From assembly GCA_944363935.1 (NCBI GenBank), contig CALVVT010000090.1:1-57356 (forward strand): a stretch of 57,356 nt of DNA. The letters are read 5' to 3'. Every line of letters starts with the position of its first letter. Within the stretch, counting starts at the first letter, position 1. Below the pieces are notes generated by a model, which saw only the letters and a list, made by a program, of their open reading frames with translations, was not told the DNA's origin and did not search any database. This DNA is from an uncultured Bacilli bacterium. Its GTDB lineage: Bacteria > Bacillota_I > Bacilli_A > RF39 > UBA660. Shown here piece after piece: positions 24,295-50,736 of the stretch. A program made the position numbers and the translations under genes.

Positions 24295-24765
24295 ATGCTG
24301 ATATATACAGGAATTTTTATTTTTAAAATTATTGAGGATGCTTTAGGAACTCTACGAATTATCGTAGTCAGTAACGGCAAGAAAAAATTAGGAGCCTTTT
24401 TACAATTTTTAAATGCTCTAGTTTGGGTTCTTGTTACTGGTACTGTTATTACTAACGTAAATAAAGATCCATTAAAAATTATATTCTTTGCTTTAGGTTC
24501 TTTAGTTGGTTCTTATACTGGAAGTATTTTAGAAGAAAAAATTGCTTTAGGGACTAATATTATTATGACAAAAACTAGTGTTATTAATGCTGAAAGAATA
24601 AAGTTAAATTTAAAAAAATATAAAATTACAGAAGTTAAAGATAATAACAGTACTTTAATTATGATAACTTGTCCACGAAAAAAAAGTGAAGAAGTTATTA
24701 ATTTAATTAAATCATTTGATAAAGACTGTAATATTATTACCGAAAAAGTTAAAAGTTTTTCTTAA
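24295..24765 (+). CDS. UPF0316/DUF2179 family membrane protein
   Basis: The N-terminal pattern KIIEDALGTLRII is typical of UPF0316. Confidence 0.65.
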   Translation: MLIYTGIFIFKIIEDALGTLRIIVVSNGKKKLGAFLQFLNALVWVLVTGTVITNVNKDPLKIIFFALGSLVGSYTGSILEEKIALGTNIIMTKTSVINAERIKLNLKKYKITEVKDNNSTLIMITCPRKKSEEVINLIKSFDKDCNIITEKVKSFS

Positions 24766-25357
24766 TTTCTTTAGCTTTATCAGTAATTATATTAACATTT
24801 CCTTTAGGAATATCTTCTTTTTTATTAACAGTCCATACAAAGGTTTCTTTATTAGTTTTTTGATAATCTTTAACATGAATACTATTAAAATCAAAGTTAT
24901 TTTTTATATGTTTAATATTGATTAAATAGCCAATTATAAGACCTAGTTTATAATTAGTATTTTTCTCTTTTAAATATTTCAATAAATTATAATTAAAGGT
25001 ACAAAGATAATAATTTAAAGAATATTTTTTTAATATTTTAATTAATTTATTAACTAATATTTTATAATTATTTCCTTCTTCTTTGATTTCAATTAAAATT
25101 ATTTTATTACTATTTATATTTTTTAAAACTTCATTTAAACTATTTAAACCATTTTTCATAAGGGTTTTTAATTTAGTTTTTTTAACAAAATAGCCATTAT
25201 AAAACAAATCATGACAAACAATAAATTTTTTATCTTTAGTAAATCTAATATCAAATTCTACCCCATCAGTGTATTTACTATTCAAACTATTTATAATAGC
25301 TTCTAAACTATTTTCTTTATGAATTCCATCATTTCCTCTATGCGCAATTACTTTCAT
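24749..25357 (-). CDS. glycerophosphodiester phosphodiesterase family protein
   Basis: IAHRG...ENSLEA...GVEFDIR...CHD motifs. Confidence 0.8.
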   Translation of the reverse strand: MKVIAHRGNDGIHKENSLEAIINSLNSKYTDGVEFDIRFTKDKKFIVCHDLFYNGYFVKKTKLKTLMKNGLNSLNEVLKNINSNKIILIEIKEEGNNYKILVNKLIKILKKYSLNYYLCTFNYNLLKYLKEKNTNYKLGLIIGYLINIKHIKNNFDFNSIHVKDYQKTNKETFVWTVNKKEDIPKGNVNIITDKAKEIKKNF

Positions 25358-25435
25358 ATTTAAATATATGAAATTTATATTTTTTTATTTATATTTTTAA
25401 AAGTGAGTGTTAGTTACCTTTTTATATAAAATCTA

Positions 25436-25464
25436 TTGAAAAATAGAAAAAAATATGTTATTAT
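25436..25464 (+). promoter_or_regulatory. promoter of small RNA copy 1
   Basis: TTGAAA, 17-nt spacer, TG-extended TATTAT. Equivalent boxes lie at 25799-25827, 26157-26185 and 26517-26545 (TATCAT in copies 3 and 4). Confidence 0.65.
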
Positions 25465-25470
25465 GTATAT

Positions 25471-25586
25471 GGAAGAGAAATCTTCATATAATAAAAAAAG
25501 GAACACTCGATATTGTCTTGCCCGAGTGTTGCCATTATAAATTTTTGGTTCCACCTAATCACAGTTGTGTTAGGTGGTTATTTTTT
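25471..25586 (+). ncRNA. candidate antitoxin small RNA, copy 1
   Basis: Starts ~7 nt after the -10 box. Has a GAAGA-GAAA-TCTTC hairpin, an AACACTCG/CGAGTGTT hairpin, and a terminator CCACCTAA..TTAGGTGG followed by TTATTTTTT. Fully antisense to the 3' UTR of the peptide gene. Confidence 0.6.
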
Positions 25587-25587
25587 C

Positions 25588-25671
25588 TTATTTTAATAAA
25601 GAAAAAACAATTAATAATAGAATAAAAATAATTATAATCAACGATGTGATTAAAAAATCTTTTTTACTCAT
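25588..25671 (-). CDS. 27-aa hydrophobic peptide, candidate type I toxin copy 1
   Basis: Not in the ORF track. MSKKDFLITSLIIIIFILLLIVFSLLK, with SD GGGAGG 8 nt upstream of the ATG. The stop codon abuts the sRNA terminator. Confidence 0.6.
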   Translation of the reverse strand: MSKKDFLITSLIIIIFILLLIVFSLLK

Positions 25672-25737
25672 ATTATCAGCCTCCCTTCATTTATCGAAGT
25701 TTGGCAAACCACCCAACTATCAAGTGTTCCTGAAACA

Positions 25738-25766
25738 ATTATAACAAATATTAGTCATAAAAACAA
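25738..25766 (-). promoter_or_regulatory. promoter of peptide gene copy 1
   Basis: On the minus strand: TTGTTT, 17-nt spacer, TG-extended TATAAT, giving a ~60-nt leader. Equivalent boxes lie at 26095-26123 and 26456-26484. Confidence 0.55.
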
Positions 25767-25833
25767 TGATTATTAATTACCTTTTTCTAAAAAATCTATT
25801 GAAAAATAATAAAAAATATGTTATTATGTATAT

Positions 25834-25942
25834 GGAAGAGAAATCTTCATATAATAAAAAGGAGCACTCGATATTATCCTGTTGGGTGTTGCCATATAAG
25901 ATGGTTCCACCTAATCACAGTTGTGTTAGGTGGTTATTTTTT
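25834..25942 (+). ncRNA. candidate antitoxin small RNA, copy 2
   Basis: Same promoter, hairpins and terminator as copy 1. The internal stem is kept through G-U pairs (AGCACTCG / TGGGTGTT). Confidence 0.6.
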
Positions 25943-25943
25943 C

Positions 25944-26027
25944 TTATTTTAATAAAGAAAAAACAATTAATAATAGAATAAAAATAATTATAATCAACGA
26001 TGTGATCAAAAAATCTTTTTTACTCAT
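25944..26027 (-). CDS. 27-aa hydrophobic peptide, candidate type I toxin copy 2
   Basis: Same peptide as copy 1. The only nucleotide difference is a synonymous TTA->TTG. Confidence 0.6.
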   Translation of the reverse strand: MSKKDFLITSLIIIIFILLLIVFSLLK

Positions 26028-26191
26028 ATTATCAGCCTCCCTTCTTTATAGAGAAGTTTGGCAAGCCACCCAACTATCAAGTGTTCCTGAAACAATTATA
26101 ACAAATATTAGTTATAAAAACAATGATTGTTAGTTACCTTTTTCTGAAAAAATCTATTGAAAAATAGCAGAAAATATGTTATCATGTATAT

Positions 26192-26303
26192 GGAAGAGAA
26201 ATCTTCATATAATAAAAAAAGGAACACTCGATATTGTCTTGTTGGGTGTTGCCATATATTTTTGTGACACCACCTAATCACAGTTGTGTTAGGTGGTCAT
26301 TTT
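26192..26303 (+). ncRNA. candidate antitoxin small RNA, copy 3
   Basis: Promoter TTGAAA-17-TATCAT, conserved hairpins, and terminator at 26270-26296. Confidence 0.55.
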
Positions 26304-26304
26304 A

Positions 26305-26388
26305 TTATATTAAAATTCTAAATATTATTAATAATAATAAAATGATAATGAAGAGTAAAATACAAATTAAAAAATCTTTTTTACTCAT
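26305..26388 (-). CDS. 27-aa hydrophobic peptide, candidate type I toxin copy 3 (diverged TM segment)
   Basis: MSKKDFLICILLFIIILLLLIIFRILI. The SD, the first 8 codons and the length are conserved; the remainder differs but stays hydrophobic. Confidence 0.55.
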   Translation of the reverse strand: MSKKDFLICILLFIIILLLLIIFRILI

Positions 26389-26551
26389 ATTATCAGCCTC
26401 CCTTCTTTATAGAGAAGTTTGGCAAACCACCCAACTATCAAGTGTTCCTAAAACAATTATAACAAATATTAGCCATAAAAACAATGATTGTTAGTTACCT
26501 TTTTCCAAAAAATCTATTGAAAAATAATAGAAAATATGTTATCATGCATAT

Positions 26552-26662
26552 GGAAGAGAAATCTTCATATAATAAAAAGATGCGCTCGATATTGTCTTGC
26601 CCGAGTGTTGCCATAAAAAATATGGGTTCCACCTAGTCACAGTTGTGTTAGGTGGTTATTTT
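26552..26662 (+). ncRNA. orphan fourth small RNA copy (no partner peptide gene)
   Basis: Promoter at 26517-26545, both hairpins, and terminator at 26629-26655 are present. Downstream, only the last ~4 codons of the peptide gene remain before the repeat ends. Confidence 0.5.
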
Positions 26663-26671
26663 ATTATATTT

Positions 26672-26710
26672 AAAAACCCATATTAAGAAACTCTCAATAT
26701 GGGTTATTTT
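26672..26710. terminator. bidirectional terminator at the array boundary / end of the Smr gene
   Basis: ACCCATATT-11 nt-AATATGGGT, flanked by AAAAA on the left and TATTTT on the right. Confidence 0.7.
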
Positions 26711-26976
26711 ATGTCTAAATAAGCTAATGTACAACCTCTATTACTGTAATCACTTTTATATTCTAAAACATATTTATTTTTCTTTAAAGTATTCCAAGTT
26801 ACCTCTCTAATAATACCTGTACCAACGCCATGAACAATAACAATAATTTTATTACTCATTTTAATATTATCATTAATAAAATCATTAATAGCAACTCTAG
26901 CTGTATCTCTATCAAAACCGTGTAAATCTAATTTAGGATAACGCTCTATAAACATAAAATCAGCATATCTCATCAT
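26704..26976 (-). CDS. Smr-domain protein
   Basis: LDLHG....A and VHGVGTG motifs. Confidence 0.8.
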   Translation of the reverse strand: MMRYADFMFIERYPKLDLHGFDRDTARVAINDFINDNIKMSNKIIVIVHGVGTGIIREVTWNTLKKNKYVLEYKSDYSNRGCTLAYLDIK

Positions 26977-45451: not shown

Positions 45452-45527
45452 TGGTGCTGGAAACAGGACTTGAACCTGCGACCTACCGATTACGAGACGG
45501 TTGCTCTACCAGCTGAGCTAATCCAGC
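45452..45527 (-). tRNA. tRNA-Thr (anticodon CGU)
   Basis: The reverse complement GCTGGATTAGCTCAGCTGGTAGAGCAACCGTCTCGTAATCGGTAGGTCGCAGGTTCAAGTCCTGTTTCCAGCACCA folds as a cloverleaf. Anticodon loop CT-CGT-AA; encoded CCA. Confidence 0.9.
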
Positions 45528-47325: not shown

Positions 47326-47527
47326 TAGTTTATTAAACAAAGACGAGGAATAGTAGTAAAATCCCTTATTTATAGTGAGTCAGTGGTTAGTGGAAACTGA
47401 AAATAATATTTTACGAACGCACCTTCCGAGTTTAATCGTATTTCTGCGTTAAAGATTAAAGTGCATAGAAATTCTATGAAGTAAGGTGGTACCGCGAATT
47501 TTCGTCCTTATTTTATAGAATTTTTTT
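47326..47527 (+). promoter_or_regulatory. T-box riboswitch leader, probable Arg specifier (CGC)
   Basis: Conserved T-box AAGGTGGTACCGCG at 47483-47496. GAA-CGC-A specifier-like context at 47415-47421. An 18-bp terminator helix (47469-47486 with 47506-47523) is followed by TTTTATT, directly upstream of argS. Confidence 0.85.
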
Positions 47528-50659: not shown

Positions 50660-50736
50660 TGGCGTCCATGAAAGGGCTCGAACCTTCGACCTATCGCTTA
50701 GGAGGCGATTGCTCTATCCAGCTGAGCTACATGGAC
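50660..50736 (-). tRNA. tRNA-Arg (anticodon CCU)
   Basis: The reverse complement GTCCATGTAGCTCAGCTGGATAGAGCAATCGCCTCCTAAGCGATAGGTCGAAGGTTCGAGCCCTTTCATGGACGCCA folds as a cloverleaf. Anticodon stem ATCGC/GCGAT, loop CT-CCT-AA. Confidence 0.9.

Follow-up and report, generated by a model that had tools for sequence, protein, structure and literature searches.

Tandem units of a convergent small-RNA gene and peptide gene in an uncultured Bacilli bacterium: a candidate family of type I toxin-antitoxin-like modules with a predicted 5'-3' mRNA panhandle

What kind of genetic element occupies the 1.3 kb between a GDPD gene (24749-25357, minus strand) and an Smr gene (26704-26976, minus strand; both labels from Pfam) in contig CALVVT010000090.1 of an uncultured Bacilli bacterium (assembly GCA_944363935.1)? 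In the whole stretch of DNA analyzed here, hereafter called the window (57,356 nucleotides, to which all positions refer), this interval is filled by a single tandem array. An original prediction, made from the sequence alone, had described 3.5 head-to-tail units of about 360 bp, and the tandem repeat finder TRF indeed delimits an array at 25404-26676 with a period of 361 bp, 3.5 copies, 87% matches and a score of 1857, and reports no second large tandem array in the 57-kb window. Once aligned, the units share 82% per-column identity, and they correspond to three full modules and one RNA-only module. Each full unit is predicted to comprise two convergent transcription units, a plus-strand small RNA and a minus-strand mRNA encoding a short hydrophobic peptide. 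We hold it very likely that both genes and the open reading frame (ORF) are real. That the units are chromosomal type I toxin-antitoxin (TA)-like modules, functioning as a TA pair and belonging to a family not yet described, is in our opinion probable, judging from sequence analysis.

The layout is best followed in unit 1. On the plus strand, a promoter TTGAAA-17-TGnTATTAT (25436-25464) precedes a small RNA of about 118 nt (predicted ends 25469 and 25586), which contains three hairpins: HP-A (25472-25485), at the 5' end and with a tetraloop; HP-B (25500-25533), in the middle; and HP-C (25551-25577), the terminator, trailed by a U tract. On the minus strand, a promoter TTGTTT-17-TGnTATAAT (25738-25766) precedes a peptide mRNA of about 239 nt (25493-25731, ends predicted), the -10 box ending 6 nt 5' of the presumed A start (25731) of the AGGAACAC leader, that is, 7 nt before GGAAC. 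The mRNA leader, which starts with AGGAACAC, is 59 nt long; its 5' part lies at 25707-25731, and the Shine-Dalgarno (SD) sequence GGGAGG (25680-25685) is found 8 nt 5' of the ATG, beside a small CUUC/GAAG hairpin. The ORF (25588-25671) encodes the 27-amino-acid peptide MSKKDFLITSLIIIIFILLLIVFSLLK, and is followed by a 3' untranslated region (UTR) with HP-C and HP-B and by a U7 terminator tail (25493-25499).

The plus-strand promoter recurs with its TG extension, and with TATTAT or TATCAT as -10 box, at 25436, 25799, 26157 and 26517, matching 10 of 12 consensus positions each time. The minus-strand promoter is present in the three full units, and was left unlisted by the promoter scanner because its -35 box matches only three of six positions. 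GGGAGG stands 8 nt upstream of the ATG in each of the three peptide ORFs. All these elements, namely the two promoters, a leader of about 60 nt, the SD and a 27-codon ORF with a single transmembrane-like segment, had been proposed in the original prediction, and are recovered as proposed. The small-RNA gene required more revision: its promoter, terminator hairpin and U tract were found, but it has three hairpins rather than two, the extra one being the 5' tetraloop hairpin, and a predicted length of about 118 nt instead of about 110.

Unit 2 repeats this scheme with a small-RNA promoter at 25799-25827 (+), an antisense small RNA at 25832-25942 (+; HP-B 25861-25893, HP-C 25907-25933) and a peptide mRNA at 25856-26088 (-; promoter 26095-26123, SD 26036-26041), whose ORF (25944-26027) encodes a peptide identical to that of unit 1. 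In units 1 and 2 (25578-25610 and 25934-25966), the last codons and the stop lie within a 12-bp U-rich/A-rich inverted repeat (TTATTTTTTCTT / AAGAAAAAACAA) that is specific to the window's species. Unit 3 has a small-RNA promoter with a TATCAT -10 box (26157-26185, +), a small RNA at 26190-26305 (+; HP-B 26221-26253, HP-C 26270-26296) and a peptide mRNA at 26214-26449 (-; promoter 26456-26484, SD 26397-26402). Its ORF (26305-26388, -) encodes a divergent paralogue, MSKKDFLICILLFIIILLLLIIFRILI, and the unit alignment shows this coding part to be far more diverged than the RNA elements that flank it. Unit 4 (26517-26664, +) lacks a peptide ORF and is an orphan small-RNA gene (promoter 26517-26545, RNA at about 26550-26664, HP-B 26582-26612, HP-C 26629-26655). 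The 5' arm of its HP-B has changed from GGAACAC to GATGCGC while the 3' arm is unchanged, and the two arms still pair, relying on G-U pairs that are possible only in the small-RNA sense, so that the orphan is apparently maintained as an RNA.

Is the module confined to this array? One scan of 185,579 species genomes with the pattern SD-N6-10-ATGAGTAARAARGAYTT gave 44 loci. Nine are long unrelated proteins; the other 35 contain the whole module, and they come from about 30 species-level assemblies labeled uncultured Bacilli, Tenericutes, Acholeplasmatales, Erysipelotrichaceae, Clostridium sp. CAG:524 and Firmicutes bacterium CAG:582. Their peptides, of 22 to 38 amino acids (22 to 29 when intact), consist of MSKKD[FL] and a hydrophobic tail. 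Counting the three ORFs of the window with the 35 loci, 25 of 38 family ORFs encode exactly 27 amino acids, most end with VLI, and the position of the stop is constant whether it is TAA or TGA; the MSKKD start is common to all 38 by design of the scan. Since both this start and a GGGAGG SD were demanded, the range of the family is underestimated, and its N-terminal conservation overestimated.

A covariance model (R1) built from 28 small RNAs matches the four copies of the window at 102 to 132 bits (E = 1e-14 to 1e-19; 122, 132, 127 and 102 bits for units 1 to 4), and finds the small RNA beside the peptide ORF in about 30 other species. Both promoters occupy fixed positions in all 28 core modules of other species; the small-RNA promoter has the TG extension in 26 of them, and the -10 box of the mRNA promoter lies 6 to 8 nt 5' of the leader in every one. 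Tandem amplification, which the original prediction had pointed out as typical of type I loci, recurs elsewhere according to the covariance model, with three units of about 355 bp in locus L040 and two in L039, L042, L026 and L031; orphan RNA genes are also present in L026, L031 and L042. A synteny comparison revealed none of the window's flanking proteins, on either the GDPD or the Smr side, at any relative locus, and the module is therefore not tied to GDPD or Smr. The neighbors of the relatives are unrelated housekeeping genes (BipA, FtsK, TrmK, pyruvate kinase, RecD2, EF-P, Lon, PcrA and others), and insertion sites are unrelated from species to species.

Contigs encoding an identical Smr protein represent the window's own species in other samples. 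Two of them, L001 and L003, span the array and carry two full modules plus the orphan RNA gene, versus three plus the orphan in the window, and copy number thus varies between strains. One ORF of L003 is frameshifted and its SD mutated, and one SD of L001 is changed to GGGGGG. Most same-species contigs (L002, L004-L010) end inside or just before the array; as the repeat breaks short-read assemblies, copy number and prevalence in metagenome-assembled genomes (MAGs) are probably underestimated. In L001 (3220-4774) no gene was called where the window has GDPD; in that strain the gene may be a pseudogene, or may have been overlooked by the gene caller.

Three other observations on the relatives deserve mention. 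The module contigs L017 and L046 come from a bin labeled Muribaculaceae (Bacteroidota), yet have 28% GC like the Bacilli loci, and mis-binning is probably the cause of the label rather than cross-phylum spread. In L050 (640-766, +), a weak match to the small-RNA model (40 bits) lies beside a different, SD-preceded peptide on the minus strand, MELVLAFAWITLITIVYIDNMMRRR, with a hydrophobic head and a charged tail, a polarity opposite to that of the MSKKDFLI peptides; this genome may possess a second toxin type, built on a related antisense scaffold. In L023 (524-647, -), a weaker match (28.6 bits) adjoins a 34-aa hydrophobic ORF, MKTSLNFKRDVFILQIIIVFLSLYINICCYHYYL, some 600 bp from a bona fide module, and may be a degenerate or divergent paralogue.

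The peptide has a short charged head, MSKKD, then a hydrophobic tail extending to the C-terminus, with one transmembrane-like segment. Over codons 7 to 27, the part outside that fixed by the search pattern, the ratio of non-synonymous to synonymous changes (pN/pS) is 0.43 in the ORF frame, versus 0.65 and 1.56 in the other two frames, and loci L022 and L037 differ at 10 nucleotides with no amino-acid difference. These comparisons indicate that the ORF is under purifying selection. The original prediction had named loss of the ORF where the repeat is conserved as one of the observations that would speak against it; in the related genomes the ORF is conserved together with the repeat.

Could the RNA or the peptide belong to a known family? 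Searching the whole window against Rfam at gathering thresholds gave nothing at the array, and a cmscan at E<=10 over 25300-26800 returned chance-level matches to unrelated families only, with no antitoxin RNA model; the small RNA has no match above chance in Rfam, a point that had been singled out for checking. Two sub-threshold matches to the 'trpB motif' (E = 0.62 and 3) are attributed to chance, and are explained by an inverted repeat on the Smr side, described below. Six peptide variants gave nothing near any cut-off in Pfam and NCBIfam, and no type I toxin model at E<=10; the weak NCBIfam similarities (Prli42, E = 0.026; MgrB and YtzI, E = 0.15 or worse) are far below family cut-offs. 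The statement that the peptide resembles no known family is in line with these searches. None of 10 peptide variants, including forms of 33 to 38 amino acids with upstream in-frame starts, was found by exact look-up in a collection of 15 billion proteins, which implies that gene callers never call this peptide. Blastn of one unit against 72,556 plasmids and 50,697 phage records gave no match, and the peptide strings had no match in the full-text literature. A single match in a pattern scan of viral contigs had neither the small RNA nor the ORF, and was discarded as a family member.

The two transcripts are predicted to end at different hairpins: HP-C and its U tract would serve the small RNA, whereas the mRNA would end at HP-B, which on the minus strand is followed by U5-7. 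There would thus be two interleaved terminators, and not one shared. About 94 nt of the mRNA 3' UTR (25493-25586) have a perfect complement in the small RNA, and the predicted overlap ends at the stop codon: the U tract of the small RNA finishes at or just before 25588-25590, and none of it extends into the ORF. The convergent, 3'-overlapping layout first proposed, with the stop codon abutting the end of the small RNA, is kept, with the corrections that the overlap measures about 94 nt and that the mRNA has its own terminator in HP-B. Three features had gone unnoticed in the original prediction: the third hairpin, the separate mRNA terminator, and a conserved pairing between the 5' and 3' ends of the mRNA.

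The small RNA of unit 1 folds into its three hairpins with a minimum free energy (MFE) of -31.7 kcal/mol (z = -3.6). HP-B and HP-C are backed by compensatory changes in the small-RNA sense. HP-A, a stem of 4 to 6 bp with a 4-nt loop, is present in 24 of 28 sequences, and its stem sequences change. Many HP-B pairs are G-U in the small-RNA sense and become C-A mismatches in the mRNA sense; HP-B is 86% paired in the latter sense, versus about 99% in the former.

The main result on the mRNA is a pairing of its two ends. For the mRNA of the window, the predicted fold has an energy of -73.5 kcal/mol (z = -7.55), with the 5' end paired to the 3' end in the MFE structure, and such a pairing is present in the MFE structures of all 28 modules, where it engages the first 13 to 25 nt of the mRNA and its last nucleotides. 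In every one of the 28 modules, leader positions 1-13 pair with the 13 nt preceding the U tract, and five positions show compensatory changes; 12 to 14 of 14 leader positions are paired to the 3' end in 27 modules, and 10 of 14 in the remaining one (L033). The RNAalifold consensus contains this panhandle and extends it, pairing GUUGGGUG, in the second half of the leader, with the HP-B 5' arm CACUCAAC, and GCC with GGC. In this fold the leader, GGAACAYUURAU-AGUUGGGUG-GCC, pairs with both arms of HP-B and buries both ends of the RNA. An alternative pairing of the second half of the leader with HP-C was set aside, the consensus fold placing it on the HP-B 5' arm instead. The same consensus structure contains the CUUC/GAAG hairpin that abuts the SD, which covaries (alignment columns 36-39 with 58-61), and an A6/U6 hairpin formed by codons 2-7.

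Further evidence supports the panhandle. In its alignment, 97.7% of the cells are standard pairs, a share that drops to 35 to 47% once the partner columns are slid; double changes occur in eight pairs, and the observed values were never attained in 500 shuffles. Independently, the mRNA ends of unit 1 are picked up by the repeat finder as an inverted repeat (25499-25512 / 25718-25731), with a second one in unit 3. Moreover, three divergent subfamilies (L012/L036/L047, L016/L030/L035 and L017/L046) have unrelated leader and 3'-UTR sequences, in which this complementarity is nevertheless retained, with energies of -24 to -50 kcal/mol; of ten divergent modules tested, nine do better than their shuffled leaders (means of -19 to -24, standard deviation about 4), and a G-C to A-U exchange in the end pairing separates L047 from L012. 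The leader is in effect a loop-less copy of the small RNA's HP-B, and leader and small RNA consequently compete for one site in the 3' UTR.

How might such a module work? The extended -10 promoter would produce the mRNA of about 239 nt, with transcription stopping at HP-B and its U5-7. Closed by the panhandle, this mRNA would probably be long-lived and poorly translated, with the AUG and codons 2-7 in the A6/U6 hairpin (the predicted mean unpaired probability of the AUG is 0.15) and the SD beside the covarying hairpin. The near-consensus promoter would in turn produce the small RNA of about 118 nt, with HP-A, HP-B and terminator HP-C. It might nucleate at the spacer and at the HP-B loop, single-stranded in the closed mRNA (predicted unpaired probabilities of 0.69 and 0.79), then zip up and displace the leader; binding raises the predicted unpaired probability of the mRNA 5' end from 0.14 to 0.76. 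In Bacillus 3'-overlap systems, decay is triggered by the duplex and depends on RNase III. By analogy, RNase III would cleave the long duplex, while a 5' exonuclease could attack the 5' end once it is freed, so that the mRNA would be destroyed before peptide accumulates. If the level of small RNA fell, the stable mRNA would be translated, and the peptide would enter the membrane and arrest growth. Tandem copies and the orphan RNA gene may adjust the dosage of both partners.

The competition between leader and antitoxin is, as far as the folds and alignments tell, the distinctive twist of this family. A bolder version of the scheme can be formulated, in which the leader is a built-in, cis-acting mimic of the antitoxin that sits on the small RNA's 3'-UTR site and closes the mRNA into a panhandle with protected ends, and the antitoxin acts mainly by picking this lock, exposing ends and duplex to nucleases, and not by masking the ribosome-binding site. 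We propose this only tentatively, and judge it rather doubtful. Were it true, type I antitoxin action by lock-picking would have no described counterpart in the hok/sok, AapA/IsoA, Bacillus or Enterococcus systems, and orphan small-RNA genes would be trans-acting lock-pickers across paralogous modules.

Two other modes of control were considered and not adopted. Re-sequestration of the SD upon small-RNA binding, as by SR4, finds no support in the predicted SD accessibility (0.31 free versus 0.43 bound), and the SD/AUG change is inconsistent. Pairing of the small-RNA 5' hairpin with the initiation region, as for SprA1as or Fst, is compatible with complementarity in some species, but no covariation was apparent by eye.

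Toxicity of the peptide is inferred from features typical of the class, and from decayed ORFs or SDs in some copies. Among the hallmarks of toxin loci are the tandem arrays and orphan RNA genes of several species, the variation of copy number between strains, the unrelated insertion sites, and the decay of ORFs or SDs beside intact RNA genes, seen in L015, L019 and L050 (frameshifted ORFs) as well as in L003 and L001. Conservation of the ORF under purifying selection would equally be expected of a harmless small membrane protein, for instance an accessory or regulatory subunit, whose expression the antisense RNA would merely tune outside any TA relationship, and Prli42, MgrB and YtzI, to which the peptide is weakly similar, are small membrane proteins. 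However, these similarities are far below the cut-offs, and accessory proteins usually share an operon with their partner, whereas here the neighbors differ in every species. Tandem copies, orphan antisense genes, ORF and SD decay and a heavily locked mRNA are moreover typical of toxins and odd for a housekeeping subunit, and we regard this explanation as unlikely.

If the peptide were instead exported or surface-active (bacteriocin-like, modulin-like or signaling), with its production under the control of the antisense RNA, its shortness, its strong hydrophobicity and its multiple paralogous copies in arrays would also make sense. Yet no transporter, immunity, modification or sensor genes were seen in the flanks examined, and the peptide, which has neither a leader nor a cleavage motif, is too hydrophobic for amphipathicity; this scenario is very improbable. 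Finally, hairpin-rich units that lie at many unrelated intergenic sites, in tandem and with some copies devoid of the ORF, could suggest a non-coding repeat, either an array of small-RNA genes or a MITE/REP-like mobile repeat, with an accidental 27-codon ORF. An accidental ORF would hardly keep its length and stop position over about 30 species, with a strong SD at fixed spacing, nor would pN/pS be lowest in its frame, with 10 synonymous against 0 non-synonymous differences in one species pair. Besides, neither terminal inverted repeats nor duplicated target sites were seen, and the promoters of both strands are conserved. We tend to exclude this hypothesis, the least probable of all.

Some points nevertheless weigh against a type I TA module acting as outlined above. 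Transcript ends are predictions from promoter and terminator motifs, the U tract of HP-C is interrupted, and the terminator scanner called no terminator in the region. The peptide lacks the polar C-terminal tail of most Gram-positive type I toxins. The search pattern itself accounts for part of the conservation of its MSKKDFLI N-terminus, and another part may lie at the RNA level, codons 2-7 forming the A6/U6 hairpin. As for the mechanism, the decay route is an inference by analogy with B. subtilis 3'-overlap systems, and a direct block of translation is unsupported, since the predicted SD accessibility shifts in no consistent direction.

If the units are type I modules, how do they relate to those already described? 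New type I families are found regularly. Their detection is difficult, as neither partner is long and both evolve quickly. About 24 families are catalogued, nearly all from cultured Proteobacteria and Firmicutes (PMC8594479, PMC12390103); according to a 2025 paper, no phyla other than Proteobacteria, Firmicutes and Tenericutes have so far yielded such systems (PMC12390103), and the Gram-positive ones among the 24 families of the T1TAdb paper are described as 3'-overlapping (PMC8594479). The TxpA/RatA group (with BsrG/SR4, BsrE/SR5 and YonT/SR6) has, like the present module, convergent genes and an antisense RNA over the 3' part of the toxin mRNA, but there the overlap reaches into the ORF (PMC8594479), while here it stops at the stop codon. 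Host of Gram-positive type, small hydrophobic peptide and SD in a structured RNA are further common points. The toxins of that group have a transmembrane segment followed by a charged tail, whereas the peptide here has a charged head and a hydrophobic C-terminus, and Rfam, Pfam and NCBIfam reveal no sequence relationship of peptides or RNAs. To our knowledge, conserved 5'-3' closure is not a described feature of TxpA/RatA-type mRNAs.

The Enterococcus par locus (Fst, RNAI/RNAII) comes close in other respects: its convergent RNAs overlap in the terminator region and leave the ORF free, its antisense RNA measures about 100 nt, and chromosomal copies are common in Firmicutes. Fst/Ldr toxins, however, have a hydrophobic N-terminus and a charged C-terminal tail, the reverse of the present peptide, which has no match to the Fst_toxin model. 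The par RNAs share one bidirectional terminator instead of the two interleaved ones predicted here (HP-C for the small RNA, HP-B for the mRNA), and 5' direct repeats pair with the initiation region; here there are none, and the 3' overlap itself provides the complementarity. In the present module the repeated element, leader versus HP-B, is inverted in the DNA, unlike the direct repeats of par, so that the leader resembles the small RNA and not its complement. SprA1/SprA1as of S. aureus also combines a 3' overlap outside the ORF with a small membrane peptide, but its functional pairing takes place outside the overlap, at the initiation region (PMC8594479), and an unquantified check by eye showed here no conserved complementarity between the non-overlapping 5' hairpin of the small RNA and the initiation region.

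The 5'-3' closure itself recalls the Gram-negative hok/sok and AapA/IsoA systems, being a descriptor of type I toxin mRNAs in which the full-length molecule is closed (PMC8594479); those mRNAs, like the one predicted here, are highly structured, and probably stable and poorly translated. There, the antisense RNA acts on the 5' region, once the lock has been opened by 3' processing, whereas the small RNA here is antisense to the 3' UTR only, which contains the element that forms the lock. Pfam and NCBIfam give no toxin homology between Hok/Gef or AapA and the present peptide. The layout would therefore be that of a 3'-overlap Gram-positive type I system with a hok/AapA-like 5'-3' lock added, and by sequence it belongs to no known family. 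We suggest that the modules make up a new family within a known kind, the type I toxin-antitoxin systems with 3' overlap, and keep the label of candidate.

Invisible to gene callers and to Rfam, the family is yet widespread in uncultured, small-genome gut Bacilli (humans, rabbits, goats, ruminants), and the covariance model and peptide signature can be used to annotate such genomes. The array also offers an explanation for MAG contigs that break at this locus. Finally, it provides a well-covarying natural case in which an mRNA 5' leader and an antisense regulator compete for one 3' element.

A few other features complete the description of the window. A 17-nt inverted repeat (26672-26708; AAAAACCCATATTAAGA / TCTCAATATGGGTTATT) separates the orphan small RNA from the Smr stop, and resembles a bidirectional terminator. 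Away from the array, and with no bearing on it, lie two kinds of ordinary features, a T-box leader (47331-47512, +; 122.7 bits) and two tRNA genes (45455-45527 and 50663-50736, -).

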